The notes under the pieces were generated by a model, which searched no databases, had not been told where the DNA came from, and saw nothing but the letters and a program-made list of their open reading frames with translations. Made by a program: the position numbers and the translations under genes. Shown here piece after piece: positions 22,345 through 48,977 of a DNA stretch of 64,000 bases. Origin of the DNA: a virus. Every line of letters begins with the position of its first letter. The first letter of the stretch is position 1. Location of the stretch: the IMG/VR virus record IMGVR_UViG_3300049049_000237, positions 80,003-144,002 of that record; one strand, given 5' to 3'.

Positions 22345-22812
22345 GTGAATCAGCGCAGATTGATGGACCTGGAGATCGACATCGCGACGCTCAAGCAGCG
22401 TGTCGATGCTCTGGAAGCCCAGAGATTCGGCATCTCTGACTCGATCCCGGGGCCCCAGCCGCTCTTCAGGCTGTACGCGATGCTCTGTCTCGATGGGCTC
22501 GAAGAAGACGAGGAAGCCGCGACCTTGATGCGTGCGTGCGCGATGTTGATGACCCCTCGTATCGTCTTCGACCTCTGCACGATGACGCAGGACATGTTCG
22601 CCTGGCGCCCCTTCCTTCTCGCACTCGACAAGCTCTCGCTGAACTACGACGTGAGCGATGCCCTCACGCGCGTAGAGTACTGCGCCCGAGCGGTCATGAA
22701 TGTACAGGGACTCCAGTACGTGGACGTCGATGACGTCATCGCGTCGCCGGTCGGCCCGACGGCCAACATGAAGTCGTTGGCCCTATCAGTAGCACGGAGG
22801 AACCAAGGATGA
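22345..22812 (+). CDS. Hypothetical protein
   Basis: GTG start with GGAAGGA RBS; ATGA coupling downstream. Confidence 0.7.
   Translation: MNQRRLMDLEIDIATLKQRVDALEAQRFGISDSIPGPQPLFRLYAMLCLDGLEEDEEAATLMRACAMLMTPRIVFDLCTMTQDMFAWRPFLLALDKLSLNYDVSDALTRVEYCARAVMNVQGLQYVDVDDVIASPVGPTANMKSLALSVARRNQG
22782..22796 (+). promoter_or_regulatory. Putative phage promoter CCTATCAGTAGCACG
   Basis: Exact core, immediately before the GGAGG RBS of 22809. Confidence 0.6.
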
Positions 22813-25397: not shown

Positions 25398-25412
25398 CCT
25401 ATCAGCAATATG
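25398..25412 (+). promoter_or_regulatory. Putative phage promoter CCTATCAGCAATATG
   Basis: Exact core in the intergenic gap after gyrB. Confidence 0.65.
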
Positions 25413-27823: not shown

Positions 27824-27833
27824 CTCGGGTACC

Positions 27834-28103
27834 GTGTCGAAGGTCCTCGGGGACCTGATCGCTCAGTCTGCCACGACCAAAGAAGGTGTGTGGTTCCAGC
27901 TACGGCACAGCCCCTCTGACCAACTCAAAGATGCGGTGCGCGGGTACGTGAAGGCGGTGAACTCGACCCACCGCACCCGCTTCTCCGCGCACTTCCCGAA
28001 GCCGTTCGTGTTCCGGATCAGTGAAGCGGAGCCTCGATCGCGTCGAGGAAGCGCTTCACGACCAGACGCGGATCGAGCGACAGCGCCCCGCCCCCGACGA
28101 TGA
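27834..28103 (+). CDS. Possible small gene opposite the packaging operon
   Basis: GTG 27834, GC3-rich codons, fills a ~195-nt gap; overlaps the convergent gene by 86 nt. Confidence 0.4.
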   Translation: MSKVLGDLIAQSATTKEGVWFQLRHSPSDQLKDAVRGYVKAVNSTHRTRFSAHFPKPFVFRISEAEPRSRRGSASRPDADRATAPRPRR

Positions 28104-28428
28104 CGAAGAACGACGAGTACTCGCTCTCGTAGCCGGCGGTGACGTTCGACACGTCGAAGCACTGCGGGATCGCGCGGTCGAGTCTCTTGTTGAGCTCGTA
28201 GCTGTAGTCCCAGTCCTCCGAGATCTTCCCCGACGCATCGAGCGGCGGGAACAGGTGGATGACCAGCGCGCCGTCCGTGAGGCGGATGCCCCAGTCCGCG
28301 ATGAAGTGAGCTCGCGGCTCGGCCTCGCGGTTCGGGACGTCTTCCTGGAGCCCACGCACCTCGGAGAGGGTGAAGTCCGACGGCCTGGGGTCCTTCGGAT
28401 CGTGGGGTACGCCGATCTTGCGGGTCAT
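28018..28428 (-). CDS. Hypothetical protein
   Basis: GGAGG RBS, ATGA overlap; begins MTRKIGVPHD. Confidence 0.7.
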   Translation of the reverse strand: MTRKIGVPHDPKDPRPSDFTLSEVRGLQEDVPNREAEPRAHFIADWGIRLTDGALVIHLFPPLDASGKISEDWDYSYELNKRLDRAIPQCFDVSNVTAGYESEYSSFFVIVGGGALSLDPRLVVKRFLDAIEAPLH

Positions 28429-29339
28429 GATGATTCCTCCATTTCGCGTTTGTTGTCCTCCGCCAGCGTGTGCAGCGGGAGGTCGGCGGCCGTGGTGAGC
28501 GAGCGCTCGTCGTAGCGCGTCTCCAGCCGACGAAGGTGGTCCATGAGCTCGGCGCTGCCGCCGCGGCGCATGTCGACTTGCTCTTGCGCGGCGATGACGC
28601 TCGACAGGAGCGCCTGCATCGCGGTCGCCTTGTTCATGCCCGGGTACCGGGTAGCCACAGTCTTGATGAACTCCATGAAGGAGCAGTCCCTCATGTACTT
28701 GAACATCTCGGCTTCTTTCGGAACGCCGGAGCCACCACGGGTGGCGATGTACAAGCTCATCGAGGCGCCGACCTGGCTGCGCGGGGAGTTGTACGCAGCG
28801 AAGTAGTCCTCGTTGTCGACGCCCTGCATCTGCCGGAGGATCTCCGGTTGCTTCGGGAGCGGGACGCACTCCATGTTCCAGAAGTAGTGCGCGTAGTAGC
28901 GCACCGTCCCGACGTTCAGGATGCTGGGATCGATCCCGTGCACTGCCGAGAGACGGCGTGCGATGTCCGGAAGCGACAGCGGCCCGAGGAGCATGATCTC
29001 CAGGGACCGGCGCACCGACGGGATGTCGAGGATGTCGAACGCGTAGGTGACGTTCGGCTCACGCGCCCACATATCGTAGATGCGGTACTTCCGCAGCCAC
29101 TCGGCCGTGGGCGCGTGCGCATTGTAGCGGGTCGGGTCGAAGTTCGGTGGGAAGACCAGCGCGCTCTGAAGACGCTTGAGCGTGTCCTCGAAGATCGCGT
29201 ACTTGGCCTCCTCCGCCGGCACCGGCATGTTCTGCCGGCGGAGCATCGCGATGATCTCGTGGGTCCGGTACCTCCGCTGCGAGAACAGATAGTAGACGTA
29301 GTAGCGGGCGGGATGTTCGAGTTCTTCGATGAAGTTCAT
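28425..29339 (-). CDS. Hypothetical protein, terminase small subunit candidate
   Basis: ATGA overlap; HTH-like SLPDIARRL...VGTVRYY; near terL. Confidence 0.6.
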   Translation of the reverse strand: MNFIEELEHPARYYVYYLFSQRRYRTHEIIAMLRRQNMPVPAEEAKYAIFEDTLKRLQSALVFPPNFDPTRYNAHAPTAEWLRKYRIYDMWAREPNVTYAFDILDIPSVRRSLEIMLLGPLSLPDIARRLSAVHGIDPSILNVGTVRYYAHYFWNMECVPLPKQPEILRQMQGVDNEDYFAAYNSPRSQVGASMSLYIATRGGSGVPKEAEMFKYMRDCSFMEFIKTVATRYPGMNKATAMQALLSSVIAAQEQVDMRRGGSAELMDHLRRLETRYDERSLTTAADLPLHTLAEDNKREMEESS

Positions 29340-31390
29340 GACGTGCTGGGTGCCTGCTCGTCGTTGCTCCGCATCCCCAGAGCCTTGAGGCCCTGGACGA
29401 CCTCGTCGACGGCGCGGCACGCACGAGCAGCGGCGAACTCGGGCACCTCGCTCATGCCGAGGCGCGAGAGAAGCGTGAGCTCGCAGAGCGTGTTCAGCGC
29501 TCGGTCGAGGTACGGCAGCTTCCCGACGAACGTGCGGATGTTCTCGGGGTTGATGAACCCGAGGGACAGGACGCTGTCGACGGTCTGGATGTCGGGGAGG
29601 ATCGAGGCCTCCTTCACGAGATCGCGACGGAGCTCGCGCGCCTCGGCGACCTTCTTCTCCGCGATCTTCTGGACCTCGTCCAGAACGTGCGAGAGCGGAC
29701 GGACGTCCTGCACGCCGACGATCGTCTCGGGACGCGAGAACAGCGACGCCGTCTTGAGCACGGAGTGCGCACGGACAGGCGTGAGCCCGGCGACGCACAG
29801 CGTGAAGACCGCCTCGTCGTACGACGCCGTCTTCGGCACGGACTGCTCGTACCCGGGCAGGCCGTAGAACGAGAAGGCGACGTCCGAGCCGTTGCTCCGC
29901 ACGGTGAGGTGCGGGCGCATCAGCGACGCCTGCTTCATCGACTCCTGGCCGTCGATGAGGGGCACCGCGAGCTCGTTCTCCAGCGACAGGAAGCCGGCGC
30001 TGGCCGGGAGCATGACCTCCTCGCCCTGCGGCATCATCTGCTGGAGACCTTCGACCTTGCGGATCGTGCGCTGCTCGCCCGTGAGGCTCACCGCGTGCAC
30101 GACCTCGCTGCCGTCCATGCTCGCCTCGACGCCGAGGATGCGCATGGGCACGGTGGCCTGGATGCCGTCCGGCGCGATCACGTAGAACACGCCCGAGCCC
30201 TTCGGGGGCGAGTTCGGCAGCTCGATGCCGTCGTCCGGCACCGACGAGCCGACGATGGACTCCTGCACCGCGGCGACCTTGCCGTCCGTGAAGATCGTCA
30301 TCGGCAGACGGGTGCCGTCGAAGTCGATGAGCTGCGGGATCACCCAGCCCACGTGCTCCTGACCCGACGTGTCGCGGACCTTGTAGACGCCCGCCTCCTG
30401 CACGATCGAGGCTTCCTCGCCCTGCGCGCTCAGCGGCGTGACGTCCTTCACCGGCGCGGCGACGGTCGTGGTGCCGTCCATGTCGACCTTCTTCGCGATC
30501 TCCTCGCCGGCCAGCTTCACGAGCTCGCGGCGTGAGATGAAGTCGACGTCGGGGTTGAAGAGCGTGCGCGACGCTGCCTTCATCCAGTAGCGATCGCGGG
30601 CCGCGTCGTAGCCGAACTGCGCGACCTCGACGGGCGCGATGCTCGCGGCCTTGTCCATCAGGAGCTCGGGGTCGCCCTCCGTCAGGAGCTTGCCGTCGTA
30701 CTGCGCGAGGGCACTGACCGCCATCAGGAACGCGGGGTTCACCGAGAGCTGGTCCTGGAGGCCCTCCGCGGCGATCTTGTCGGTGAGTCGATCGAGATCG
30801 ATCTGCGACAGCGTCGGCGCGATCTCCGCGAGCAGACCACGCTCGGCGAGCTGCGCCATCTTCATGCCGGGGCCCATGATGTAGCTGGCATCACCGCCGC
30901 TGTGGTTGCCCATGCCCGCGCCAGGCGTGTTCGAGGAACGGCCGGGCGGGTAGAACATCGAGTAGAGGCTCCCGTCACCCTCGTCGTTCGTCATCATGTC
31001 GAACGTGTTGGGGCGGAAGAGGACCTCACGCAGGCGCTGCCCGTTGAGCGGCCAGAGCCGCTTGTCCTCGCTCATCACGAGGTCGAGCGGGCAGAGCTCG
31101 TTGTTCTTGATGATGACGGGGATGAGCGCCTTCTTCGATGTCGGGTTCGCGGTCGAGTTCGACAGCGCCGAATCCGTCTGCGCCGAGATGACGATCACGC
31201 CGATCGAGAAGCCCTGCTCCGGGTCCTGCCGCATGGGCACGTACTTCGGGTTGTACTCCGAAGCCTCGGGGACTTGGCGGAAGAGCTCCTGAAGGATCTG
31301 CGAGCTCCACTTCGCCGAGTCCTCGTCGAGCGGCGTCGCGGCGACCTTCGTGTTGGCGAAGGGCTTCTGAACCGGCGTGAAGAGTTCCAT
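29336..31390 (-). CDS. Large KxA-rich putative head protein
   Basis: Starts MELFTPVQ; about twelve KxA sites. Confidence 0.75.
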   Translation of the reverse strand: MELFTPVQKPFANTKVAATPLDEDSAKWSSQILQELFRQVPEASEYNPKYVPMRQDPEQGFSIGVIVISAQTDSALSNSTANPTSKKALIPVIIKNNELCPLDLVMSEDKRLWPLNGQRLREVLFRPNTFDMMTNDEGDGSLYSMFYPPGRSSNTPGAGMGNHSGGDASYIMGPGMKMAQLAERGLLAEIAPTLSQIDLDRLTDKIAAEGLQDQLSVNPAFLMAVSALAQYDGKLLTEGDPELLMDKAASIAPVEVAQFGYDAARDRYWMKAASRTLFNPDVDFISRRELVKLAGEEIAKKVDMDGTTTVAAPVKDVTPLSAQGEEASIVQEAGVYKVRDTSGQEHVGWVIPQLIDFDGTRLPMTIFTDGKVAAVQESIVGSSVPDDGIELPNSPPKGSGVFYVIAPDGIQATVPMRILGVEASMDGSEVVHAVSLTGEQRTIRKVEGLQQMMPQGEEVMLPASAGFLSLENELAVPLIDGQESMKQASLMRPHLTVRSNGSDVAFSFYGLPGYEQSVPKTASYDEAVFTLCVAGLTPVRAHSVLKTASLFSRPETIVGVQDVRPLSHVLDEVQKIAEKKVAEARELRRDLVKEASILPDIQTVDSVLSLGFINPENIRTFVGKLPYLDRALNTLCELTLLSRLGMSEVPEFAAARACRAVDEVVQGLKALGMRSNDEQAPSTS

Positions 31391-31418: not shown

Positions 31419-32519
31419 TTACGGCGACAGCTTGACCTTCGTCGACAGCAGCGTCGGCGGAGGCGGAGGCGCACCCGCTGCTGTCGCGAGTGACGTGAGA
31501 TACGTGAGCAGCGTCTCGCCGCACACGCCGCTCATCGAGGCGTCTGGACCGCCGACGAGTACCTGCGGCGCGTCGATCACGGCCTTCGATGAGCTCTTGA
31601 GGGACGCTTCCTGCGTGCCCTCCATGACGGCCTTGCCGGAAGCCTTGTGCAGGATGTCCCCGTCGGCCTCGATCGTGTGGTTGCCGCTCACGGTGAGCGA
31701 ATGGTCGGCGCCGATGAACTCGGTCTTCTTGCCGCTCATCTCGACCATGAGCGAGTAGGTCTCGCTGCTGACGTCGCCCGTGTCCCGGTCGATGCCTGCC
31801 TGCGCGACCTTCACCTCCCAGACGACCTTCTCGTTGCCGTCGGGTCCGCGCAGCGGGAAGTGCCGTACACGAAGCGACGCCTTCTCGTCCTGCGCGAACT
31901 CGTTCAGATGGAAGACGTACGTGGCAGGGGCATCCCCGCTCGGGTCGTTCTCCTGCCGCTCGACGGTCATCCGGATGTCTCCGGCGAACGTGTCGAGCGA
32001 GTAGTTCTCGCAGAAGTCCTTGATGAAGTTCCCGATCGGCAGGCAGATGCGCTGCGCGATCTCCGTGGCACCGAGCTGGAGGATGCCACCGCGACGCAGG
32101 ATGATGAAGTTCTCATCCCGGCCCATGATGAACATGTCGCCGGGCTGGATGTCAGGTCGGTTCCCGCGGAACGAGACGTCCGTCTGGCTGCCACCCTCGG
32201 GCGTGCTTCGCAGCGGCTCCCCAGTGTCCGACTGCACGACGGTGGGGGTCAGCAGGAAGCCGAGGATGAAGGGCGGCGAGGTGTCGTTCGCTCGCCCCAC
32301 CATGCACACGGCGCCGACTTCTGGCAGCAGCGAGAAGCCCTCGCCGTTGTAGTTGTGGACGTACGGCGACAGGATCTGGAGGTCCTCGTACCGCTTCGAG
32401 GTGGTCTCGGTGATGACCGAGACCGTGTAGTTCCTCTTGTTGACGTCGACCACCGTCGCCTGCTCGCAGACGAAGGGGAAGAACGTCGAAGTCGACGGGC
32501 CGTTGCCGGTGTATCCCAT
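31419..32519 (-). CDS. Baseplate central spike (gp5/gpV-like)
   Basis: N-terminal OB fold (LLPEVGAVCMV...FILGF), beta-repeat C-terminus, terminal LLSTKVK. Confidence 0.7.
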   Translation of the reverse strand: MGYTGNGPSTSTFFPFVCEQATVVDVNKRNYTVSVITETTSKRYEDLQILSPYVHNYNGEGFSLLPEVGAVCMVGRANDTSPPFILGFLLTPTVVQSDTGEPLRSTPEGGSQTDVSFRGNRPDIQPGDMFIMGRDENFIILRRGGILQLGATEIAQRICLPIGNFIKDFCENYSLDTFAGDIRMTVERQENDPSGDAPATYVFHLNEFAQDEKASLRVRHFPLRGPDGNEKVVWEVKVAQAGIDRDTGDVSSETYSLMVEMSGKKTEFIGADHSLTVSGNHTIEADGDILHKASGKAVMEGTQEASLKSSSKAVIDAPQVLVGGPDASMSGVCGETLLTYLTSLATAAGAPPPPPTLLSTKVKLSP

Positions 32520-35500
32520 CAGTAACCTGCCGGACCCTGACCGTGCCCGAACTCTCGCGCGTACGCCAGACCCGGGATCGGGTGCAGGCCGTGGATGTCG
32601 GACTTCTCGCCGTGGGTCGCGGCGGTGATGAGATGCTGCTGGAGGTTGTTCGTCATGAGCCGCGCGATCCAGTCCTTCTGACGACGCGCGGTCGTGGTCT
32701 GCGTCGGCTCCAGGAACGGCTTCACCTGGATCGGACGCTTGCCCTTGAGCGTCGTCCGGTTGACCTCGTCGACGACCGACTTCTGAAGGTGGTCACCGCG
32801 AAGGATCGACGGGTGGTCTCCGGGGTCGACGACCTGCACGGTGCTCGTCGCGTTGCGCACCGTGAGCTCGACGTGACGACGAAGGACGTCCTCCTTCTCG
32901 TAGATCTTGCCGATGCGATCGACCATGAAGTCCTGCGCCGCTTCGATGCCGCGGGTCTTCAGGAGATCGCGCAGGTTCGGATCACCCTCGGTGAGCTGCT
33001 CGCCGCGCTGGAACGTGTAGCCCGGCTTGATGTGCGACTTCGGCGCGTGGCGCGCGTAGAGGGGGACGCGGCTCGTGTCGTAGTAGATCTTGAAGCCGCC
33101 CTGCGGCTGCGGCTCGATGCGCGTGACCTTGCCCTGCTTCGGGGCGACGATCGCGTCCTTCGCAGGCGACTTCTGCGCGACGCCGTACAGACCCTTCACG
33201 GTGTCGAACTCGTCGACCGCGCCGCGCTGGATCGGGACGATGCCCTGGTTGTGCGTCTGCTTGAGCATGAGCTGCGACGCACGTTCGCCGATCGCTTGCG
33301 CAGCGATGATGCCGACGTTGTCGCCGATCGCGTAGTTCGTGCCGCTCGGGTGCTTGCCCATGCAGGTCGAGCAGATGCCGTGGGGCATCCGGCACTTGAG
33401 CGGGGAGCGCACGAAGACGTGCGAGACGCCACCCTTGGAGAGGCTGCTCTGGATCTCGGGCGTGATGATCGTGCCGGCGGGCAGCGACTTGCCCGCGATC
33501 GTCACCGGCGACGCGAGGTACCGATCCACGAGGTCGCGATCGGCCGAGCTCAGGCTGATGCCCTGCTGCGTACCGCAGTCGTGTGACGTGATCGGCGAGT
33601 CGATGTTCGCCTGGATGAGCTCCTTCGTGAGCGTGCCGGGCTCGCGGACTGCGTCGGTCTTCTGGATGACGCCGCGACGCGCACCCGAGGACTGGAGGAA
33701 GTACCCACCGATGTCGATGCCCTCGGAGAACGAACGCGTGATCGGGATCTTCGACGGACGACCGAGATGATCCTCGACCAGCATCGGAGCGATCACGAGC
33801 CCCTGGAACTGCTCGCGCTTCGCCTTGATGCCCGACTGCGCCATGTCCGAGACGTTCGTCGGGTTCTCCTTGTGCTTCTCGCTGTAGATCTTGTGGAGGT
33901 TGCGCGTCGCATCCATCCAGATCTTCGTGCGTGCCTCGTCCGTATCCGCCTTGGCCGCGAGCCGCTTCGCCTCGGCGACGATCTTCTGCCGCTCTGCACG
34001 GAAGGGTTCGAGGTCCGAGAGACGCACGGTGTGTCCGCTCTCGAAGGCCATCTTGAACCCGAGCTGCGTGATGCCCTGCGTCAGAGCACCGAAGTGACCC
34101 GGCTCGGTCCGCGCCGTGTCGCGCAGCATCTCGCTGACGAACTTCTTCGTCACCGGCGTCTGGAGGTCGGTGAGGATCTTGTCCTTGTACTTCGCAGGCA
34201 CCATCGACGCGATGCGTGCGCGGCCGAGCGTCGTGCGCTTGCCCGCGATCGTCACGACGTCGTCGAGGCTCACCTTGTTGCCGAGGAACGCCTTCTCGGC
34301 ATCTTCCTTCGTCGAGAAGGTGTGGGACGTCTGCTTCTTCGGCAGCGACATGCGGTAGAGAGCGAGCAGCGCCTCGTTCGTCGGGGTGAAGAGGACCTCG
34401 CCCGTGCTCGCCGACAGCGAGCGATTCGACGGCAGGAGCTTCTTCGCTTCCTCGACCGCGCCGTGGCTGAGCGGGAGCATGAGCGCGACCGCGTCGCCGT
34501 CGATGTCGCCGCCGATCGGCGGGAGCACGAGAGGGCTCACCTTGATCGCGCGGCTGTCGGTGAGCTTCACCTTCTGCCCGATGATGCCGTACTGGTGGAG
34601 CACCGGATCGCGCTTCATCAGCACGGGGCGGTGCTCGATCTCCTGCTGAAGCATCGCCTCGGCGGTCGGCGTGCGCTGCGAGATCTCCTTCTGGGCGTCG
34701 AACGGGTTCATGCCCATCTGCGTCAGCCGGTGCGCGACCAGCGGGCGGAAGAGCTCGAACGCGATCTTCTTCGGCACGCCGATCTCGTCGGCCCCGAGCC
34801 CGGGGTCGGCGACGATCGTCGCTCGCGCCGTGTAGTCCTGCTTCTTGCCGATGATGCGGTCCTGAAAGAACCCGTCCTTCGGCATGTCGCCCGCGATCGT
34901 GTGGAGCACACCGGGCAGGTGGCGACCCTTGACCTCCTTGCCCTGGAAGTCGATGTCGAGCGCCTTCTTCCCCTTCGGCGTTGTGCCGATGAGGTTCTGC
35001 ATCTCCTGGAAGAGGTCACCCTGCGTCTTGAGCAGTCGCTTGTGCGGGATGCCTTCCTTCTTCGACTGCTCCAGCGAGGTGTTCACCATGCCCAGCCGTC
35101 GGTAGAGCTGGTTCATGGGATCGATGCGGTCCTGCCCGTCCGCGCTCTCCTGGAAGGGGCGGTAGATCGGCGGGAGCACCGGCAGGTACTTCAGCGTGTA
35201 CGCCTCCGCCGGGGTCTTGCCCTGCTCCTTGAGCGTCGAGAGCGCCTTGTACGTGAACGTCGCCCGGTTCAGGTCCGCACCCTTGAGCTTCGGGTCGTCC
35301 ATTTGGGTGCGGAGCTTCTTGAGCTCCTTGTCGATGTCGATCTTGGCGAGTGCCTCGCGGATCGCCTGCCCGCCCGACTTGCCGTTGATCGCGAGCTCGC
35401 CCGAGATGACCTTGTGCAGTAGCTGCGCTTCGTTCGCACGCTTCGCGTCCCCACCCTTGATGTTGAGCAGGTTCACGACCGCCTTCGCGAACACGGGGTT

Positions 35501-38500
35501 CGGCATCGGCTCGGCGAGCTCGATGTAGCCCCAGTTCTGCTTGTCGGTGCCGAAGATGCGGGTGTCGAAGATGCCGCCGGACTCCGGCTTCATGTTCTTC
35601 GCCATCACCGTCGCCGCGGGGTTCGTCACCTTCGCGTGCTTGCCGGCCTTCGCGAGCACCTCAGCATCCGTCATCGGCATGATCTGGATGCCGTTGCCGC
35701 GCTTCTGCGTGTTGAGCCCCGCAGAGTGCAGCATTGCGTTGAACTTCTCGTAGACGAACGGCACCTGCGGCGGCGGCAGCGGCTTGCCGTTCGCCAGCGC
35801 ATCCCAGAGAGCTTCCGCCTGCGGCTTGTCCGACTTCAGCGTCTGCATCTCGCCGAGGTTCTGACGAAGCCCCGCCGCGAGCGCGCCGTACACACCGAGC
35901 GATCCGAGACTCTGCGCGCCCGTCTCGCCACCGCCTCGCGGAACAAGGTTGGTGTCGTACTGGATCATCGGCGCGTAGTCCTTCAGGTAGAACCCGCCGT
36001 GACGCACGTGCGTCTTCTTGTCGATCTGGTGTTCGAGCTGGAAGACGTAGTGGGGCCCGACCGTGACGTCGCCGATCGTGCGACCCGTCTTCGGATCGAT
36101 GAGCGTCTCCGTCTCCTTCAGGCCGTGCTTCTTGAGCTCGTTCTGGACCTTCTTTAGGTAGTCGGTCTGTCCGTCGAAGTTCTTGACGAAGTACGGCTTG
36201 CCCGTCTTCTCGGCGATCTTGCCCGCGGCCGTCTCCAGAATCTGGCCGGGGTTCATGCGGCCGGGCACCGAGACCGGGTTGATGAGCATCTCGACGTGCT
36301 CCTTCTTCCCGCCCTTCTCGGCAAACGGCATCTCGTGGTCCGGCACGACCTGCGTGACGATGCCCTTCGCGCTGTGACGCGTGGAGACCTTCGAGCCCAC
36401 GACGAGCGGCTCGGACGTCTTCACGTGCACGACGATGTTCTTGCCCGCACGAACGACGCGCACGATCTCACCCGGGTACGGGTGGTCCCACGTCATCGCG
36501 GCGTTGCTGTACCCGATGCGCCCCTTCTTCGTGAGCTGCGCGAGCATCTTCGCGTCGAGCGAGTCGGGGTCCTTCTGCTCGCGGAGCGCGAGCACGAGAG
36601 GGTCTCCCGGCTGCACCTTGGTGCCCGGCTTGATGAGGCCATCGTCACCGATGTTCGCGAGCTGCGTCTGCGCGTACGCGTTGAGCTTGTCGTCGAGGAA
36701 GCGCTTCTTGCTGATGACGTGGTCGGACGTCACGTAGAAGGACGGCTTGAGCAAGTGCTCCGTGCCGAGCTTCTTCGCCGCGCTCTCCGAGAGGACGATG
36801 CCGTCCTCGTGGTTGGCGCCGTTGGCGAGGTAGGCGACGCGCACGTTCGTCCCGAGCGCGAGCGCACCGTCCTTCGAGAACGAGTGGTCCGCGAGGACCT
36901 GTCCTGCACGCACCGTGTCCCCGACCTTCACGGTCGGGGTGCTGTGGAGCATCGCCTTCTTGTCGTTCAGCGGGTAGTGGTCGTAGAGGTGGACCGACCG
37001 CTCCTTGCCGTCCTTGCCGACGACGATGATCTCGTCGTTCTTGATGGACTTGATGTGCCCGTCGATCGGCGACTTGTGCGAGAGGAACGTCTGCCCGATG
37101 CGCTGCTCGAAAGAGATGCCCGGGGCCGCCTCGACCTGCACACGCGGGGGTTCGCGGCCGACCACGCTGAGTGCCTGAGCCATGTGACGCGCCGACATCG
37201 TCGTGCGTCCCGCCGCGTCGTTCTGCATGAACGGGACGAGGTTCGTCTCGGTGGAGAAGACCTGCCCCGGCGTGATGAGGGTGTACTCCGCCTGCGAGAA
37301 CGGGAGCTCTTCGATCTCGCCGTTCTTGTTCGAGACGCGCACCTGGGGACCGAGCGGCTTGGGCTTGCCGCCCTCCCATCGGATCTGGTCGGGCAGGACG
37401 ACAATGGCTCGCGCAGCTTCTGCCGGCGTGAGCTCTTCGACCTTCCCCTTCTTGATGTTGTACAGACGCGCGTACGGCTTGCGGTCCTTGACCGTGATGC
37501 CGCTCGTCAGGTGGAGTGAGGTGCCTGCTCCGGAGCCCTCGGGCGTGAACACCGGATCGAGGAAGCCGAGGTGCGACGGGTCGACGGACGTGTTCGACAG
37601 CGTCACCTGATGCTCGGACTTCAGACCACCGGGGCCCATGATGGTCGTGTGGCTGCGATCGGCGAGCATCGTGACGAGGTTCGTCTGCTTCGAGTTGCTC
37701 GCGAGCGCCGTGGCGAAGACGTGGTTGATCGGCTTCTGGATGAGGTCGGGCATCACGATGTCGCGAAGCACCGACGCATTCCCTGCGCGCAGCGACTCCA
37801 TCGTCGACTTCTTGCCCAGGGACTTCAGCACGCGGCCGTGGATCTCGTTCTTCGAGGCCTTGAGGCGCTCGGCGAAGTGATCGGTCGGCGTCCAGAGCTC
37901 CTTGAACTCCAGCGAGTCGATCGGGTCCGGATGCGCTCGCTGCGCGCTCACGTCGATAAGCTTCGCGCTCGCCTTCATCAGGGCGGGACCTGAGACGGAC
38001 TCGAAGGCGTGACCCAGCGTGGTCTTCGTGACCACCGGGTCCATCTTCGTCTCCGACAGGTACTTGTTGATGGCCTGCGGCAGGTCGAGGGTGCTCGGGA
38101 CCTGCTGAGCATCCTTCATCGCCGTGTAGAAGGACTTGAGGTCGTGCTCGTAGCGCGACTTCTTCTGATTCGAGGCGAAGTTCTTCTCGCCCCACGAGGC
38201 CTTCATCTCGTCGTCGCTGACGCCCGCGGCCTTCAGCACCGAGTAGAGCGGGATCTTCCGCGCGCCGCTCTTGATGAACATGTAGCCCGTGCCGGGCTCC
38301 ATCTGGAGATCGAAGCTCTTGCCCTTCGCGAGCTGGAACTGCGCCTCGTACTCGCCCTTCTTCTCGGTCGCCTTGACGTAGGCACCGGGACGGAGACGCC
38401 ACTGGTTCGTGACGGTCTTCTCCTGCCCGCCGATGATGAAGCTGTGGTGGCGTGTGAGCTTGGGGATCTCCGCCACGCGGGTCCTCTTGCTCACGAGCAC

Positions 38501-38746
38501 CTTGCCGTCGCGATCGACCACGTCGACGTGACCGAAGACTGGAGCCGTGTACGAGCGCCCGTTCAGACGCGCGTCCATCTGGCCCTTGATGTCCTCGGTT
38601 CCGAGGTCTTCACCGCCGACCTCCAGGTTTCGCACCCGCACCTCGATGCCGGTCTTCGGATCGACGATGGGGAAGGTGCCGTTGATCTCCGCCAGGAGGC
38701 GGGTCTTCAGCTCCTCGAACTGCTTGTTCGGGTCGGTGGTGAGCAC
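32519..38746 (-). CDS. rpoBC: DNA-directed RNA polymerase, fused beta and beta-prime subunits
   Basis: Beta motifs TPEG, NHEDGIV, KVSTRHSAKG, PGRMNPGQILE; beta-prime motifs PVLPPIYRP, GKKQDYTAR, RDPVLH, GGDIDGD, AAQAIGE. Confidence 0.95.
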   Translation of the reverse strand: MLTTDPNKQFEELKTRLLAEINGTFPIVDPKTGIEVRVRNLEVGGEDLGTEDIKGQMDARLNGRSYTAPVFGHVDVVDRDGKVLVSKRTRVAEIPKLTRHHSFIIGGQEKTVTNQWRLRPGAYVKATEKKGEYEAQFQLAKGKSFDLQMEPGTGYMFIKSGARKIPLYSVLKAAGVSDDEMKASWGEKNFASNQKKSRYEHDLKSFYTAMKDAQQVPSTLDLPQAINKYLSETKMDPVVTKTTLGHAFESVSGPALMKASAKLIDVSAQRAHPDPIDSLEFKELWTPTDHFAERLKASKNEIHGRVLKSLGKKSTMESLRAGNASVLRDIVMPDLIQKPINHVFATALASNSKQTNLVTMLADRSHTTIMGPGGLKSEHQVTLSNTSVDPSHLGFLDPVFTPEGSGAGTSLHLTSGITVKDRKPYARLYNIKKGKVEELTPAEAARAIVVLPDQIRWEGGKPKPLGPQVRVSNKNGEIEELPFSQAEYTLITPGQVFSTETNLVPFMQNDAAGRTTMSARHMAQALSVVGREPPRVQVEAAPGISFEQRIGQTFLSHKSPIDGHIKSIKNDEIIVVGKDGKERSVHLYDHYPLNDKKAMLHSTPTVKVGDTVRAGQVLADHSFSKDGALALGTNVRVAYLANGANHEDGIVLSESAAKKLGTEHLLKPSFYVTSDHVISKKRFLDDKLNAYAQTQLANIGDDGLIKPGTKVQPGDPLVLALREQKDPDSLDAKMLAQLTKKGRIGYSNAAMTWDHPYPGEIVRVVRAGKNIVVHVKTSEPLVVGSKVSTRHSAKGIVTQVVPDHEMPFAEKGGKKEHVEMLINPVSVPGRMNPGQILETAAGKIAEKTGKPYFVKNFDGQTDYLKKVQNELKKHGLKETETLIDPKTGRTIGDVTVGPHYVFQLEHQIDKKTHVRHGGFYLKDYAPMIQYDTNLVPRGGGETGAQSLGSLGVYGALAAGLRQNLGEMQTLKSDKPQAEALWDALANGKPLPPPQVPFVYEKFNAMLHSAGLNTQKRGNGIQIMPMTDAEVLAKAGKHAKVTNPAATVMAKNMKPESGGIFDTRIFGTDKQNWGYIELAEPMPNPVFAKAVVNLLNIKGGDAKRANEAQLLHKVISGELAINGKSGGQAIREALAKIDIDKELKKLRTQMDDPKLKGADLNRATFTYKALSTLKEQGKTPAEAYTLKYLPVLPPIYRPFQESADGQDRIDPMNQLYRRLGMVNTSLEQSKKEGIPHKRLLKTQGDLFQEMQNLIGTTPKGKKALDIDFQGKEVKGRHLPGVLHTIAGDMPKDGFFQDRIIGKKQDYTARATIVADPGLGADEIGVPKKIAFELFRPLVAHRLTQMGMNPFDAQKEISQRTPTAEAMLQQEIEHRPVLMKRDPVLHQYGIIGQKVKLTDSRAIKVSPLVLPPIGGDIDGDAVALMLPLSHGAVEEAKKLLPSNRSLSASTGEVLFTPTNEALLALYRMSLPKKQTSHTFSTKEDAEKAFLGNKVSLDDVVTIAGKRTTLGRARIASMVPAKYKDKILTDLQTPVTKKFVSEMLRDTARTEPGHFGALTQGITQLGFKMAFESGHTVRLSDLEPFRAERQKIVAEAKRLAAKADTDEARTKIWMDATRNLHKIYSEKHKENPTNVSDMAQSGIKAKREQFQGLVIAPMLVEDHLGRPSKIPITRSFSEGIDIGGYFLQSSGARRGVIQKTDAVREPGTLTKELIQANIDSPITSHDCGTQQGISLSSADRDLVDRYLASPVTIAGKSLPAGTIITPEIQSSLSKGGVSHVFVRSPLKCRMPHGICSTCMGKHPSGTNYAIGDNVGIIAAQAIGERASQLMLKQTHNQGIVPIQRGAVDEFDTVKGLYGVAQKSPAKDAIVAPKQGKVTRIEPQPQGGFKIYYDTSRVPLYARHAPKSHIKPGYTFQRGEQLTEGDPNLRDLLKTRGIEAAQDFMVDRIGKIYEKEDVLRRHVELTVRNATSTVQVVDPGDHPSILRGDHLQKSVVDEVNRTTLKGKRPIQVKPFLEPTQTTTARRQKDWIARLMTNNLQQHLITAATHGEKSDIHGLHPIPGLAYAREFGHGQGPAGY

Positions 38747-38752
38747 GCCCGC

Positions 38753-38782
38753 AGTCTACTGCTCGCGCGACGAAGGGGTCAA
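38753..38782 (-). promoter_or_regulatory. Sigma70-like promoter TTGACC-N18-TAGACT, leaderless
   Basis: -10 ends 6 nt before GTG 38746; no RBS. Confidence 0.7.
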
Positions 38783-38812
38783 CGAACCGAGCCGAAACGC
38801 AGGGGTTACTGA

Positions 38813-38827
38813 CCTATCAGAAACGTG
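38813..38827 (+). promoter_or_regulatory. Putative phage promoter CCTATCAGAAACGTG
   Basis: Exact core at a divergent junction, before the GGAGG RBS. Confidence 0.7.
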
Positions 38828-38835
38828 GAGGCGCC

Positions 38836-38994
38836 ATGCCCGATCACGAGCACCAGGACGACCCCACGTACTTCGAGCGCATCGACACGCTCACGCAGTT
38901 CGACGACTTCGTCGCCGACGTCATCAACGCCAACATGTTCCCGCCCGCACACCAGGAGGAGTACGAAGACGATGCTGAATCTTCTGCTGGTTAG
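38836..38994 (+). CDS. Small acidic protein (52 aa)
   Basis: Not in the ORF track; GGAGG RBS; begins MPDHEHQDDPTYFERID. Confidence 0.65.
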   Translation: MPDHEHQDDPTYFERIDTLTQFDDFVADVINANMFPPAHQEEYEDDAESSAG

Positions 38995-39085
38995 CATCGC
39001 CGCCGGCTTCCTGATCGGTGTGTCCCACCACCTCTACTACGTCCTCGGGAGGCTGAGCGATGCGACCCGCAACGTTCGCGCATGA
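38972..39085 (+). CDS. Small membrane protein (37 aa)
   Basis: AGGAGG upstream; MLNLLLVSIAAGFLIGVSHHLYYVLG. Confidence 0.5.
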   Translation: MLNLLLVSIAAGFLIGVSHHLYYVLGRLSDATRNVRA

Positions 39086-39506
39086 CCACGATCACGAGAC
39101 GCCCGACTGTGCCGAGTGCCGCGAGCCGGTCGGCGTGATGCAAGACGCCACCGTGATGCTGAGTGGTCAGTTCTTCTACAACCGCGAAGAGCAGTGCGCC
39201 TTCTTCGTGCTCGACCCCGACAGCGAGCTCGCCATCGTCGAGATCCAGGACGCCCTCGGTAGCGGCAAGCCGCAGCTCGCCATCGTCCTGAACAAGGACA
39301 ACCTCGGCCCGGTGCGCGTGGTGCACGAGGAGTGCCTCGGCGACTTCGACCCCGATGGGGCGAGTGACGAGGACGACGAAGACGATGATGACGAGATCGA
39401 GATTGGTCTCGATCCGGAAGACCCCGACTACCACGACATGAAGATGGCGATCGAGCGTGATCGCAGCGAGTGGGACGAGAACGACCTGCTCCACAGGAGA
39501 CGCTGA
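39060..39506 (+). CDS. Acidic protein with CxxC...HxxC zinc motif
   Basis: GGAGG RBS; CAEC and HEEC; Asp/Glu-rich tail. Confidence 0.7.
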   Translation: MRPATFAHDHDHETPDCAECREPVGVMQDATVMLSGQFFYNREEQCAFFVLDPDSELAIVEIQDALGSGKPQLAIVLNKDNLGPVRVVHEECLGDFDPDGASDEDDEDDDDEIEIGLDPEDPDYHDMKMAIERDRSEWDENDLLHRRR

Positions 39507-39511
39507 AGAAG

Positions 39512-40618
39512 ATGCCCAAGTACTCGGAAGCGCAGCGCCAGGCCGTCCAGGAGCTGACGGTTCAGTGGGAGAGTGGCTACTTGTCGATCCCCGCCCTGCT
39601 CGGGCCGGTGGGGATCGGCAAGACCGACATGGCACAAGAGCTCGCCATCGAGATGAGCTCGAAGATGGACGACTCGCTCATCTTCGAGCCCATCGCCACC
39701 GGTGAGGCCTCGGACCCGACGGACACGTCGGGCATCCCGTGGGTCATCACGGTCGACGACCCGAACGGAGAAGCGACCAAGAAGGACTACCGCGTCCTCT
39801 GGGCGCTGAATCGCGCGGCGTACCAAGCGTGCCGCATGCCCACGCTTCTTCTTTTCGATGACATCGACAAGGCGACCAACATCGTCGTCAACTCGCTGCT
39901 CAACCTCTTCGTGCACCGCCGCTTCAAGGACTTCGCGCTGCACCCGAAGAGCCTGATGATGACCGCGGGCAACCGCACGCAGGACGACATCCACGCGAAC
40001 CGGCTGTCGGAGTCGCTGCGCACCCGCATGACGATCATCGAGGTCGAGGCCGACTTCGAGGACTTCGCCAACTACGCGAAGAAGACCGGCAACATCCACG
40101 ACCACCTCATCGGGTTCCTGACGGCCCGCCCGGAGCTCCTGCACAAGCACGAGGAGAACGTCTACCGGTTCCCGACGCCCCGTGGGTACCGCGAAGCCTC
40201 GCTTCACATGTGGAAGTACCCGGAGTCCGACTGGCCCGACATCGTCGAGCGCAAGCTCGGCAAGCCGGTGCGCAACGACTTCGTCGCCTGGCACAAGATC
40301 CTGTCGAAGGTCGACGTCGAGCACATCCTTCGCGTCGGCTACGTGAAGGACATGCCCACGGACATCGTCGGCAAGAAGATGATGGAGTTCGCCGCCATCT
40401 TCGCGCTCACGATGCACCTCAACAAGAAGGACGGTGTTCAGCCTGGGTGGGCGGGCTTCGACCCGTACATCGACAGCCTGAAGGACTCGCCGGAGATGAA
40501 GATTGCGTTCCTTCTCCAGCTCACGGAGAAGGCGCGCTCTGCCGTGCGCCAACTGTACCCGACCGCCGCCGGCAAGATCATGGCGACGGTCATCGCAGAC
40601 GAGGCGGCCGGGCCGTGA
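39512..40618 (+). CDS. MoxR-like AAA+ ATPase
   Basis: GPVGIGKT, LLLFDDID, TAGN, LRTR, FPTPR. Confidence 0.85.
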   Translation: MPKYSEAQRQAVQELTVQWESGYLSIPALLGPVGIGKTDMAQELAIEMSSKMDDSLIFEPIATGEASDPTDTSGIPWVITVDDPNGEATKKDYRVLWALNRAAYQACRMPTLLLFDDIDKATNIVVNSLLNLFVHRRFKDFALHPKSLMMTAGNRTQDDIHANRLSESLRTRMTIIEVEADFEDFANYAKKTGNIHDHLIGFLTARPELLHKHEENVYRFPTPRGYREASLHMWKYPESDWPDIVERKLGKPVRNDFVAWHKILSKVDVEHILRVGYVKDMPTDIVGKKMMEFAAIFALTMHLNKKDGVQPGWAGFDPYIDSLKDSPEMKIAFLLQLTEKARSAVRQLYPTAAGKIMATVIADEAAGP

Positions 40619-41835
40619 TCATCCAGGAGAAGAACCAGGACCTCTACAACCGACGGATGACGAAGGCTGCGACGGCCCTCGTCATCCGCCACCCGTTCTT
40701 CGGGTATCTCCTTTTCGGTAGCTCCGTGAAGGTCGTCGCGCGAGCGATTCCCACGATGGCTACCGACGGGCGCTCGATCTACTGCGGGATCGACTTCGTC
40801 AGCAAGGAGCCGATCGAGATCTTGGAGTTCGGTCTGCTGCACGAGCTGCTGCACATCTACTTCAACCATCACGCGCGACGTGGCTCTCGTGACGCGAAGG
40901 TGTGGAACATCGCCGTCGACATCTTCACGAACGAGCAGTGCTCCCTGCTCCTCTCGCACGACAACGGGAACACGCGCTGGCCGATACCGGCACGCTTCAT
41001 CCAGCCGGCAGAATGGGCGCTGGGCAAGTCGTGCGAGGAGATCTACGACATCTTGATGAAGGCGGAGCAGGACGAGCCTGACGTCCTGAAGAAGCTCCAG
41101 CCTGCGGAAGACGAGCTTGGCAGCGGCAGCGACATGATCCCGATGCCCGAGCCGCTTCCTCGGGGCGTGGATCCGCTCGACCCGCAGGGCTCGAAGGACT
41201 GGCAGGGCTCCTTCCAGCAAGACGTCGCGAGTGCCCGCGCGATGGCCGACAAGACCGTCGTCACGAAGCGCCTGCTGACGGATGCAGTGCGCGATCGGAT
41301 GGCGAAGATCCTCAAGTCCACACTGCCTTGGGGATCGATCCTGCGGGGCGACCTGTCGTACGACCTCGGGTGGGATGAGGCGACGTACTGTCCCCCGAAG
41401 ACGAAGTACTACCCGATCATCCTCCCGCAGACGCGGTCGACCAAGGAGCGAGTCCTGCTCCTGGGCATCGACATCAGCACGAGCGTCACGGACGACCTCA
41501 TCCAGATCTTCATCTCGAATGTGATGTCGGCTGCGATGAAGGCCACCAAGACGGTGGTCGTGACGTTCGACCAGTTCCAGCGCGACTACTACGAGACCAC
41601 CAACCCGAAGACCATCTTCGAGCACGTCAAGTTCAAGTCGGGAGCGCACTACAAGACTTCGGCGATGTGCGTCTTCGAGCACGCAGATCGCCTGAAGCCG
41701 AGCGCCATCTGTCTGCTCACCGATGGGCACATCGAAGTGCCTGAGACCGCATACAAGAACACGACCTTCGTGATTCCCACCGGCGGGGCCCACCTGCCGT
41801 GGGGCCGGCACATCGTGATGGAGTACCAATGGTAG
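40615..41835 (+). CDS. HExxH metallopeptidase plus vWA domain protein (DUF2201-like)
   Basis: TMATDG, HELLH, WNIAVD, IDISTSV (MIDAS-like), LTDG. Confidence 0.8.
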   Translation: MIIQEKNQDLYNRRMTKAATALVIRHPFFGYLLFGSSVKVVARAIPTMATDGRSIYCGIDFVSKEPIEILEFGLLHELLHIYFNHHARRGSRDAKVWNIAVDIFTNEQCSLLLSHDNGNTRWPIPARFIQPAEWALGKSCEEIYDILMKAEQDEPDVLKKLQPAEDELGSGSDMIPMPEPLPRGVDPLDPQGSKDWQGSFQQDVASARAMADKTVVTKRLLTDAVRDRMAKILKSTLPWGSILRGDLSYDLGWDEATYCPPKTKYYPIILPQTRSTKERVLLLGIDISTSVTDDLIQIFISNVMSAAMKATKTVVVTFDQFQRDYYETTNPKTIFEHVKFKSGAHYKTSAMCVFEHADRLKPSAICLLTDGHIEVPETAYKNTTFVIPTGGAHLPWGRHIVMEYQW

Positions 41836-43250
41836 AGATGATGTCTGTGTACGCGTCCCTCGCGCACGCGGTGATGAACGAGCAGCTTCGTCCGGTCTTG
41901 GAGCGGTCGTGGTCCGCGTCCTCCGACGTGACCGGAACGAAGGGCAAGGCGTGGCGCATCGCGCTCTGCGCCTACGGCAAGGACGTGTACACGCTCGGGT
42001 CTCGGATGGGGATTCCGACGAAGAACAGCGTCGGCGGGCACGGGTACTCCGTGTTCACGTGCCCGCGCATCCTCACGCTCGGCATCTCCCCGCTGGAGGT
42101 CTACGGGTACAAGACGATCACGCACTCGACGACCGCCTACACGCCCATCCACCTCGCGACGGCGCTTCTTCGCTTCGCCCCGAGCGAGTACCGCTCGATG
42201 GCCGAGGAGCTCCTACAGCCGGCGTTCCTTCGCAAGTACGCGAAGCACCAGGAGCCGGACGTCGTGTCCATGCGGCTCAACCCGTACGTGCCCGAGGAGC
42301 TCGGACTTCCGTTCAAGCACCTCCCCATCGAGCCCGGCGAGTACATCGACGAGGTCGGGAACCTCGCCTGGTTCACGCCCGAGTACGCGCACAAGTACTT
42401 CGAGCACAAGCTGCGCGAGGGCTTCGTGCGCCTCACGCAGCTCAACCTCGTCCATCGCATGTGGGGCTCGCTCGTCGAATCCGGCGCAGCCGCCGTGCTG
42501 GCGCACGCGAAAGACCGTGAGCTCAGCGACTACCCGCTGCTCACGTTGCGGCTGCGCATGGCGAGTAAGCACAGCGCAGAGAACTTCCTCAACAAGCTCA
42601 CCGGCGTCCGCGGGGTGCTGAACATCGTCCGCGATGACCTGTCCGAGTACCGGATGAAGAAGGGTCTCTCCATCCTCGCGACGACCGGCACCGCTCCCGT
42701 CCGTGCGATGTTCAAGTTCATCGGACGCAAGCTGACGATGGACGACCTGCGTGAGCTGACCCCGCGGCAAGCGCTGGAGATCTGCTTCTACGCACCCCTC
42801 GGGGCCATCGAAGACCTACGCCCGCGAGCAGAAGAACTCGGTGCGATGTTCTTCGGGATCAAGGACCTCCCGATGGGGAAGATCCAGAACGTGGTCTCTG
42901 ATCACGTGCACCGCGCCAAGGAGTGGTACCCGTGCAGCGACGCGGGTATCGCGAGGCAGATGAGCACGAAGACGATCGCTGACGCGAAGTCGGAGTGGGA
43001 CGACACGTACCGTCCCCTCACGCACGAGTTCGTGGAGGCCTACACGTGGCGGAACGACCTCCTCGAAGCGGTCGATCCGGACACGGCGTTCCTCGGGATG
43101 ATGTACGAACTCACCACGGAGGAAGAGTCCGTACCGCGCATCGCGATCGACAACCTGCTCCGCACGCACTCGAACTACGCCAGGCTGAAGGACATCCTCG
43201 CCCGTATGCCTCTTCATCTGCGTAGGATCGGGGGGCTCGACAGAACGTGA
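41829..43250 (+). CDS. Hypothetical protein
   Basis: Long ORF with phage-like codon usage, coupled to the vWA gene, followed by a terminator. Confidence 0.75.
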   Translation: MVEMMSVYASLAHAVMNEQLRPVLERSWSASSDVTGTKGKAWRIALCAYGKDVYTLGSRMGIPTKNSVGGHGYSVFTCPRILTLGISPLEVYGYKTITHSTTAYTPIHLATALLRFAPSEYRSMAEELLQPAFLRKYAKHQEPDVVSMRLNPYVPEELGLPFKHLPIEPGEYIDEVGNLAWFTPEYAHKYFEHKLREGFVRLTQLNLVHRMWGSLVESGAAAVLAHAKDRELSDYPLLTLRLRMASKHSAENFLNKLTGVRGVLNIVRDDLSEYRMKKGLSILATTGTAPVRAMFKFIGRKLTMDDLRELTPRQALEICFYAPLGAIEDLRPRAEELGAMFFGIKDLPMGKIQNVVSDHVHRAKEWYPCSDAGIARQMSTKTIADAKSEWDDTYRPLTHEFVEAYTWRNDLLEAVDPDTAFLGMMYELTTEEESVPRIAIDNLLRTHSNYARLKDILARMPLHLRRIGGLDRT

Positions 43251-48947: not shown

Positions 48948-48977
48948 AGGGTACGGCAGGCACGACAGAACGGTCAA
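48948..48977 (-). promoter_or_regulatory. Sigma70-like promoter TTGACC-N18-TACCCT, leaderless
   Basis: -10 ends 6 nt before ATG 48941; same geometry as the RNAP promoter. Confidence 0.7.

Follow-up and report, generated by a model that had tools for sequence, protein, structure and literature searches.

A single-chain beta/beta-prime RNA polymerase, two conserved promoter classes and a co-inherited sigma factor in a family of large phages

The virus record IMGVR_UViG_3300049049_000237 of IMG/VR (191,681 bp, about 65% G+C, rated complete by CheckV) encodes an RNA polymerase (RNAP) of bacterial type in one chain. Its gene, P0001, lies on the minus strand of the 64,000 nucleotides that were analysed (bases 80003-144002 of the record, hereafter the window, to which positions refer unless the genome is named) and is the sole RNAP locus in the complete 191.7-kb genome. 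The product is a complete bacterial-type two-barrel RNAP in which beta is joined directly to beta-prime. Two promoter classes of this phage are real and conserved among its relatives: class A, which is sigma70-like and leaderless and stands before the RNAP gene and other genes for particle proteins, and class B, which contains the motif CCTATCAG and stands before non-structural genes. A sequence-only reading of the window, made without database searches, had proposed that this polymerase is made late by host RNAP, packaged in the virion, and used to transcribe the plus-strand replication blocks from CCTATCAG.

The order of beta followed by beta-prime motifs in the 2075-aa open reading frame (ORF), described in that reading, is borne out by Pfam and NCBIfam models. 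The Pfam domains Rpb2_3 and Rpb2_6 occupy aa 353-920 and Rpb1_1, Rpb1_2 and Rpb1_5 occupy aa 1019-1837, with barrel matches to PF00562 in beta (Rpb2 domain 6, E 1.5e-49) and PF00623 in beta-prime (E 2.6e-18). The NCBIfam rpoB model PRK00405 aligns with aa 257-1013, up to model position 1092 of 1096, and the beta C-terminal motif GLNTQKRG is found at aa 1010-1017. Homology to the beta-prime N-terminus begins at aa 1037, where residues 23-54 of the Taq/Thermus protein align to aa 1037-1069. The fusion is a direct head-to-tail one with no added linker domain between the two parts; the models place the junction close to the predicted 35660-35720 (Table 1), and its length is kept across 27 aligned members of the fused-RNAP family. 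The rpoC model TIGR02386 aligns unbroken with aa 1119-2054 (model positions 157-1126 of 1147), and beta-prime is continuous from the clamp helices via the region of the bridge helix and trigger loop to the C-terminus. The best matches among solved structures in the PDB are bacterial beta-prime chains (E 1e-90). The clamp helices, which are the main docking site for sigma region 2 in RNAP, could be located by residue-by-residue alignment to Thermus beta-prime.

All three catalytic aspartates are retained. D1414, D1416 and D1418 in the loop GGDIDGD are invariant in the 27 aligned homologues, and a more distant fused clade (37-38% identity) has NADFDGD at this position. The cysteines C1724, C1785, C1792 and C1795, which form the second zinc site, are likewise invariant in the 27 homologues and are the only four cysteines of P0001. 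With no cysteine before aa 1724, the four-cysteine zinc ribbon of the beta-prime N-terminus is absent from the protein: between IFG and WGYIELAEP there is only TDKQN, and the same short, gap-free stretch is seen in the family alignment. The ribbon is lost family-wide, so P0001 is a variant and still a member of the two-barrel RNAPs. Lineage-specific insertions are absent as well. A weak Peptidase_M23 match at aa 1854-1918 (E 0.002, below the cut-off) was rejected as evidence of a peptidase. It falls inside the continuous rpoC alignment, and the sandwich-barrel hybrid motif of beta-prime resembles M23 and lipoyl folds.

The sequence-only reading also stated that no alpha or sigma gene can be recognised in the window. 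For alpha this extends to the complete genome, in which profiles for alpha and omega (PF01193, PF01000 and PF01192) gave no match at E <= 1, the controls being positive in 14 of 14 control genomes. P0001 may nevertheless make use of host alpha. A second RNAP, either T7-like or with a second beta-prime, was not found in the genome, although the PF00940 control was silent in all control genomes, which makes that one negative weak. For sigma the statement is true of the window only, since the genome encodes a cognate sigma70-family protein elsewhere; the enzyme is not without a sigma.

This sigma factor (P0123, 263-264 aa, regions 2-4) is encoded on the minus strand at genome positions 168820-169614, beyond the window and 50 kb away. 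Pfam detects its region 3 (37.1 bits against a cut-off of 25.3) and, weakly, region 4 (E 0.002); region 2 alone was not detected by Pfam. A profile built from 26 orthologues aligns to residues 191-377 of SigA, corresponding to regions 2.2-4.2 of SigA/RpoD structures in the PDB, with E 5e-12. The protein is an orthologue of Gp10 of Salmonella phage Arash (E 4e-13) and is also present in the complete relative G001 and in Vibrio phage D69. Orthologues are found on contigs of the same lengths as those with RNAP homologues (163885, 183061, 191539, 195774 and 134300 bp), and sigma co-occurs with RNAP on every long related contig. The sigma gene is translationally coupled to a 101-aa ORF with CCTATCAG ahead of the pair, an arrangement shared with G001, and it lies directly downstream of genes headed by class A. 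In region 2.3 (residues 105-115 of P0123) the phage sigmas have (I/V)TNFQR where primary sigmas have WW(I/V)RQ, a change that is compatible with a different -10 specificity.

A further candidate partner is a 501-aa ATPase of the SNF2 family (SNF2-rel_dom and Helicase_C) at genome positions 163881-165386 on the minus strand (L031:1382-2887), the start of which overlaps the upstream ORF (GTGATG). With 40% identity to Arash Gp217 (E 6e-99) it is better conserved than the RNAP, and in Arash its gene directly follows the second RNAP gene. It may be an RNAP partner similar to RapA or NPH-I. Among the non-structural genes of D69, VPHD69_0034 (L032:3371-3910) is annotated as an anti-sigma factor like T4 Srd, which hints that relatives also interfere with the host sigma.

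More than 100 clusters of fused homologues at the 90% identity level, of about 2060-2080 aa, were found on contigs of 160-200 kb. The homologues P0029, P0042, P0077, P0082, P0101 and P0107 measure 2400-2980 aa and are interrupted by inteins or homing-endonuclease domains (PF14528, PF05204, PF14890, PF03161). The only cultured relatives in the phage collection are the Vibrio phages D69, D148 and D181 and Salmonella phage Arash, with RNAP identities of 28-31%. In tblastn searches with P0001, 97-98% of the query was covered in D69, D181 and D148, and in Arash Gp206 and Gp216 jointly covered aa 17-2070. The full-length fused homology, the presence of a Gp10-like sigma and a Gp217-like SNF2 protein, and the position in the particle module place P0001 in an Arash/D69-type family of fused phage RNAPs. 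No description of a fused beta/beta-prime phage RNAP, its pairing with sigma or its promoters was found in the literature. The family is large and undescribed, and what is new here is the finding of two conserved classes of promoter, homologous to those present in two cultured relatives.

Class A is best seen ahead of the RNAP gene, where the sequence-only reading had noted a sigma70-like promoter. This element, TTGACC-18-TAGACT, is the only sigma70-like match in 14 kb, and a single match is no more than chance. It is, however, conserved: GTTCGTTGACCC, the -10 hexamer (TAGACT, TAAGCT or TACAAT), the spacing and the start codon are kept in five genomes of 55-100% RNAP identity, four of them in one alignment, while the surrounding DNA has diverged. 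The -10 hexamer lies 6 nt before the GTG at 38746, a leaderless layout. The same layout, TAnnnT 6-7 nt before the start, is found for 14 of 172 minus-strand genes and none of 62 plus-strand genes, against a background of 0.37% of RTG triplets (p 8e-15). Class A heads the RNAP-spike operon, the portal gene, a Gp8-like hydrolase gene and genes for other large particle proteins. A strict scan for TTGAC-N16-19-TAnnnT returned only five sites genome-wide, and a conserved -35 as a general feature of class A was therefore rejected; the reliable part is the -10 element with leaderless spacing. In Arash both RNAP genes stand behind CTAAAAT, like other structural operons of that phage, and TAAAAT fits TAnnnT. 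As an Arash counterpart of class A, CTAAAAT is a lead only.

Class B was recognised from the motif CCTATCAG, of which there are five copies in the window against 0.63 expected, a number that no shuffle reached. The complete genome has 13 copies, and CCTATCA(G) is the most enriched k-mer upstream of its genes. The copies are oriented with the downstream gene, on either strand, and in three related records the motif is also enriched (11 copies against 3 of a control pattern, 3 against 1 and 4 against 0). It is also invariant at the corresponding place before the RNAP gene in five genomes. The sequence-only reading had linked CCTATCAG to plus-strand replication blocks, but the motif is not specific to the plus strand: 6 of the 13 copies head minus-strand genes, all of them outside the window. 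Alignment of 33 sites from six genomes gives CCTATCAG-n-A(22/33)-n-n-R(29)-T(22)-G(27), or CCTATCAG-nAnn-RTG in short. This element stands at the head of the topoisomerase, AAA and replication blocks, of minus-strand genes in the left arm and of the sigma operon. The RTG 4 nt after CCTATCAG was considered as the downstream start codon and rejected in that role: at 48994 it is out of frame with the gene at 49016, and it is part of the signal.

The copies lie between 4 and 35 nt upstream of start codons, without exception on the sense strand, and near Shine-Dalgarno sequences. Such a location could also suit a signal that acts at the RNA level, for example a site of processing or an operator of translation within longer transcripts. 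Three observations make us regard such a role as very improbable. In the 88-bp divergent gap before the RNAP gene, CCTATCAG is the only conserved block able to drive the plus-strand genes. Several copies come directly after terminator-like hairpins followed by a T-run. Furthermore, a hexamer followed after 6 nt by G has the geometry expected of a -10 element and its start site.

Comparable elements are present in the cultured relatives. Arash has 26 minus-strand copies of GGTATAAG and a single plus-strand copy, whereas about two would be expected on each strand. The extended form, GGTATAAG-tAaaGTGTAA, stands before non-structural minus-strand genes. In D69 the element reads TGyTATAAG-tAAtATGTAA and is found on the strand that carries the non-structural genes, and L010, a relative whose RNAP is 38% identical to P0001, has GGTATAAG before the gene that diverges from its RNAP gene. 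In Arash and D69 the block after the hexamer is RTG-TAA (GTGTAA or ATGTAA), of which the present phage retains only RTG. Transcription starting at this block in Arash and D69 would give an RNA with a start codon and an immediate stop at its 5' end.

We read class B as a sigma-type -10 hexamer, TAT(C/A)AG, at -12 to -7. The conserved G of RTG then falls at +1, the usual distance for a transcription start. The candidate promoter of the sequence-only reading stands as a conserved, gene-oriented signal of non-structural genes, and not as a free-standing novel element, in view of its resemblance to a sigma-type -10 TATCAG with a start site. Primary sigma factors flip out and bind the bases A-11 and T-7 in region 2 (PMC7598289). 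The class B hexamer retains A-11 and has G at -7, and this G is invariant in three lineages. The layout TAT(A/C)AG-nAnn-RTG is common to phages of Salmonella, of Vibrio and of a high-GC host, and for this reason a phage-encoded factor is expected to be its reader rather than three different host polymerases.

The opposite assignment should also be considered. The phage RNAP with its sigma could read class A as a late promoter, like T4 gp55 or the non-virion RNAP of phiKZ, and the host could read class B, which in Arash and D69 is similar to an extended -10 element (TGnTATAAG). About half of the class B copies of Arash have TG two bases upstream of the hexamer, and the best alignments of the phage sigma are to primary sigmas, whose targets are elements of the TTGACA and TAnnnT types. 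The conserved G-7 speaks against host reading of class B, as host primary sigmas need T-7 (PMC7598289), and so does the maintenance of the nAnn-RTG block across phages of very different hosts. Moreover, the RNAP gene has only class A, and this scheme could not start unless the enzyme is packaged or the host reads class A as well. We consider the reversed assignment rather improbable, and hold to a phage-encoded reader for class B.

The two classes meet in back-to-back divergent pairs at 38753-38820 and 48939-48989, and at 48972-48989 only 4 nt lie between CCTATCAG and the opposing TTGACC. In Arash, CTTATACC directly abuts CTAAAAT before gp212 and gp216. Two polymerase systems may compete or interfere at such pairs.

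The surroundings of the RNAP gene were described in the sequence-only reading as a virion operon, a block continuing from RNAP through spike, head protein and terminase. The coupling of RNAP and spike is correct: the RNAP stop and the spike start overlap in TGATG, in the local sequence ...GGTTACTGATGGGATAC..., and overlap or adjacency of the two genes is kept in L011 (55% RNAP identity) and in L010. In L004 (73% RNAP identity) an insertion of about 580 nt (16196-16775) separates the stop of the RNAP gene from the start of the spike gene, and the TGATG coupling is broken. The spike protein P0002 has a weak Phage_base_V match (E 0.01) and Atlas feature scores of 0.95-0.96, with TM values of 0.55-0.59 to gp5/VgrG clusters. 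The designation 'head protein' for the next gene product, P0003, was dropped, as no match was found in Pfam, PHROG or Atlas; an AlphaFold model of it, made with six orthologues, was too poor to be used (mean pLDDT 55, pTM 0.28). Contiguity with the terminase does not hold either, an ORF on the opposite strand (27807-28061) intervening. Gene calls based on third-position G+C (GC3) were wrong over 27807-29330, and the calls in Table 1 for that region were taken from comparison with L011. The order portal, divergent plus-strand block, RNAP, spike, 684-aa gene, terminase is the same here and in L011. In L010 portal, RNAP and spike are retained together with a protein of about 690 aa, other genes preceding the terminase, and in Arash the order is portal, Gp205, RNAP. 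The statement that the RNAP is embedded in the virion operon is essentially right.

Table 1. Positions in the window of the RNAP gene, its parts, the promoters and the neighbouring genes
Feature	Position	Strand	Basis or remark
Single-chain beta/beta-prime RNAP gene (P0001)	32519..38746	-	2075 aa, GTG start, without Shine-Dalgarno sequence
Beta module, aa 1-1013	35708..38746	-	Pfam Rpb2_3/Rpb2_6; NCBIfam rpoB PRK00405
Beta/beta-prime junction, aa ~1013-1037	~35636..35710	-	End of rpoB model and start of beta-prime N-terminal match
Beta-prime module, aa 1014-2075	32522..35707	-	TIGR02386 rpoC; PDB matches
Beta-prime clamp helices, aa 1210-1254	34985..35119	-	Residue-by-residue alignment to Thermus beta-prime
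Catalytic loop GGDIDGD, aa 1412-1418	34493..34513	-	Family alignment
Site of the missing beta-prime N-terminal zinc ribbon (GGIFDTRIFGTDKQNWGYIELAEP)	35507..35578	-	Cysteine content and family alignment
Class A promoter of RNAP gene: -35 TTGACC 38782-38777, 18-nt spacer, -10 TAGACT 38758-38753	38753..38782	-	Sigma70-like scan and conservation
Class B element CCTATCAG-AAAC-GTG, then GGAGG and ATG at 38836	38813..38827	+	CCTATCA invariant in 5 genomes
Divergent pair, class A side	48948..48977	-	TTGACC 48977-48972, 18-nt spacer, TACCCT 48953-48948, 6 nt, ATG 48941
Class B of divergent pair, heading replication block	48982-48989	+	Same pair kept in G002 (L028)
Class B copy before block with topoisomerase II gene	22782..22789	+	CCTATCAG match
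Class B copy before gene at 25487-25939	25398..25405	+	CCTATCAG match
Class B copy ~60 nt before SF2 helicase gene	49578..49585	+	CCTATCAG match
gp5/VgrG-like central spike (P0002), 366 aa	31419..32519	-	Start overlaps RNAP stop; Phage_base_V and Atlas matches
Conserved 684-aa protein (P0003)	29336..31390	-	3' of spike in all relatives
Conserved 301-aa gene	28428..29330	-	tblastn to L011, E 5e-44; no Pfam match
Gene of ~110 aa	about 28099-28365	-	Comparison with L011
Small 91-aa ORF between block and terminase	27807..28061	+	Comparison with L011
Large terminase subunit	26000..27823	-	phrog_675, E 2e-41; PF05876 GpA_ATPase
Portal protein	43284..45164	-	tblastn to Arash Gp204, E 9e-63; class A-type TAGTAT-6-ATG start
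Divergent block: 52-aa ORF, 148-aa ORF, AAA_5 ATPase, DUF2201-like gene	38836..43250	+	Class B element at head

The arrangement of the promoters suggests how the polymerase could be used. Class A is the only promoter of the RNAP gene, which means that a reader of class A must be there from the moment of infection, whether this is the host RNAP or an enzyme carried in the particle. If the host enzyme acts on class A, the phage enzyme is left with class B, and replication genes can precede particle genes only if the phage enzyme enters with the DNA. We infer packaging, the timing of expression and the division of the two classes between the polymerases in the following way. The host holoenzyme with its primary sigma would read the class A promoters, and the RNAP would be made together with the particle proteins and be packaged with its sigma, perhaps also with the SNF2 ATPase. 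In the next infection the injected holoenzyme would initiate at class B promoters, with transcription starting at the G of RTG, and having G at -7 would shield class B from recognition by the primary sigma of the host. A single chain that needs no alpha scaffold could be suited to delivery through the tail and to refolding without subunit assembly. We give this scheme as a whole, in which the host reads class A, RNAP and sigma are packaged and the injected holoenzyme reads class B, an even chance of being correct.

The RNAP probably rides in the virus particle, judging from its gene position and from the Arash particle proteome, which is not clean. The RNAP protein Gp206 heads the list of proteins detected in Arash particle preparations, with 3516 spectra, ahead of the major capsid protein, and Gp216 (1210 spectra), the SNF2 protein Gp217 (1148) and sigma Gp10 (467) were found as well (PMC10585845).

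Several points weigh against the proposed scheme. The Arash particle list comprises 116 of 252 proteins, with RNA ligases and ribonucleotide reductases among them, and carry-over is put forward by its own authors as another explanation (PMC10585845). The genes for the reductases and ligases on this list are scattered through the non-structural region. The Arash RNAP is only about 31% identical to P0001 and is split in two, and its CTAAAAT is not enriched genome-wide (9 plus-strand and 4 minus-strand copies, where about 7 would be expected on each strand). Although the phage sigma possesses a region 4, no conserved -35 is seen for class B in the 33 sites. A class A promoter so close to the consensus would presumably be active from the onset of infection, and late timing does not by itself follow from it. 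The label 'host-like' for class A rests on the general sigma70/SigA consensus. Finally, a 230-kDa protein must pass through the tail.

A rival reading is an enzyme that is not packaged but serves as a middle polymerase. The host would then read class A from the start and make the RNAP, sigma would be obtained by read-through from the upstream class A operon, and the newly made enzyme would read class B. The resemblance of class A to a strong host promoter, the position of the sigma gene directly 3' of class A-headed genes and the contamination of the Arash particle proteome with obvious non-particle enzymes are all in line with this. Such a course would, however, place the expression of particle genes before or alongside that of replication genes. 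It also sits poorly with an RNAP gene that is coupled in translation to the spike gene and, throughout the family, lies between the genes for portal and terminase, and whose product tops the spectrum counts of Arash particles above the major capsid protein (PMC10585845). We consider an unpackaged middle polymerase unlikely and continue with the injected holoenzyme.

In its widest form the packaging scheme describes a self-contained kit delivered by the particle. It would consist of a minimal single-chain RNAP without alpha and omega, a cognate sigma for TAT(C/A)AG with G-7, and the SNF2 ATPase, co-inherited with the promoter layout in phages of Salmonella, of Vibrio and of a high-GC host, with the leaderless particle genes left to host RNAP. 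This wider reading is offered tentatively, as possible but somewhat short of an even chance.

Very large single-polypeptide RNAPs that are carried in the particle and have their own early promoters are known from N4 (vRNAP) and crAss-like phages (gp66). The N4 enzyme is a T7-like single-subunit RNAP, and to our knowledge neither of the two uses a sigma70-family factor. Bacterial RpoB and RpoC are similar to P0001 in domain order, catalytic centre, clamp helices and second zinc site. P0001 differs from the bacterial enzyme in lacking the beta-prime N-terminal zinc ribbon, in having GGDIDGD for NADFDGD, and in the absence of alpha and omega from the genome. The RpoB-RpoC fusions of Helicobacter and Wolbachia (PRK09603, PRK14844) show the same order of beta and beta-prime, but these cellular fusion models have 2839-2890 positions against 2075 aa for P0001, which scores 392 bits against an equivalog cut-off of 5372.

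The closest system is that of Arash (OQ632216.1; Gp206 of 1525 aa and Gp216 of 606 aa; PMC10585845), with D69, D148 and D181, in which beta is likewise fused to beta-prime. Arash shares with the present phage the orthologous sigma and SNF2 proteins and the location of the RNAP beside the portal in the particle module, and both Arash and D69 have the TAT(A/C)AG-nAnn-RTG element before non-structural genes. The original description of Arash annotates the proteins as beta and beta-prime; the fusion and the promoters are not described (PMC10585845). There are also differences. In Arash and D69 beta-prime is split near aa 1505-1527 into a second gene, whereas P0001 is one chain. Arash has a second sigma, Gp196, whereas only one was detected in the present genome. 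The context of the class B hexamer is CC-TATCAG here and GG-TATAAG in Arash and D69, and particle genes have leaderless starts in the present phage and Shine-Dalgarno sequences in Arash.

The virion RNAPs of phiKZ- and AR9-like phages are also multisubunit-type enzymes, encoded among late or particle genes and lacking alpha and omega, and there, too, the RNAP genes are linked with an SNF2-type ATPase (PMC7598289, PMC7824862). These enzymes are presumed to be injected and to carry out host-independent transcription of the early genes (PMC7598289, PMC7824862). In contrast to P0001, which is one enzyme in one chain, they are very divergent, consist of four or five polypeptides and occur as two paralogous sets, virion and non-virion. 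P0001 is closely similar to bacterial RNAP and is accompanied by a recognisable sigma, whereas phiKZ- and AR9-like phages encode no sigma70-family factor. Reviews of jumbo-phage RNAPs state that the jumbo phages that encode an RNAP lack sigma factors, and they describe no fused beta/beta-prime enzyme with a sigma (PMC7598289, PMC7824862).

The mReC phages of Weinheimer and Aylward (2020, PMC7481178) are, like the present phage, uncultured and tailed and have bacterial-like beta and beta-prime homologues. They were defined by separate beta and beta-prime matches, NADxDGD, a Gp23-type capsid protein (PF07068) and a PF03237 terminase, and a fusion is not mentioned (PMC7481178). Membership of the present phage was rejected in view of its GGDIDGD loop, a terminase matching PF05876 only, and a capsid protein without a Pfam match and thus without PF07068. 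In the same paper the fusion in crAss gp66 is noted, and no similarity to beta or beta-prime was detectable with COG models (PMC7481178).

If the proposed scheme is correct, P0001, with 2075 aa and lacking alpha, omega and the beta-prime zinc ribbon, would be smaller than any other natural RNAP of bacterial type that is known to function with a sigma factor, and its promoter could be recognised directly in the genome sequence. It would offer a tractable system for studying the roles of alpha, omega and the zinc ribbon, and an orthogonal pair of sigma and promoter for engineering. The family comprises hundreds of uncultured phages of about 190 kb, and with Arash (Salmonella) and D69 (Vibrio) as cultured entry points the model can be tested at the bench. 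Beside the enzymes of N4 and crAss-like phages and those of phiKZ, it would represent a third independent solution by which a phage brings its own polymerase.

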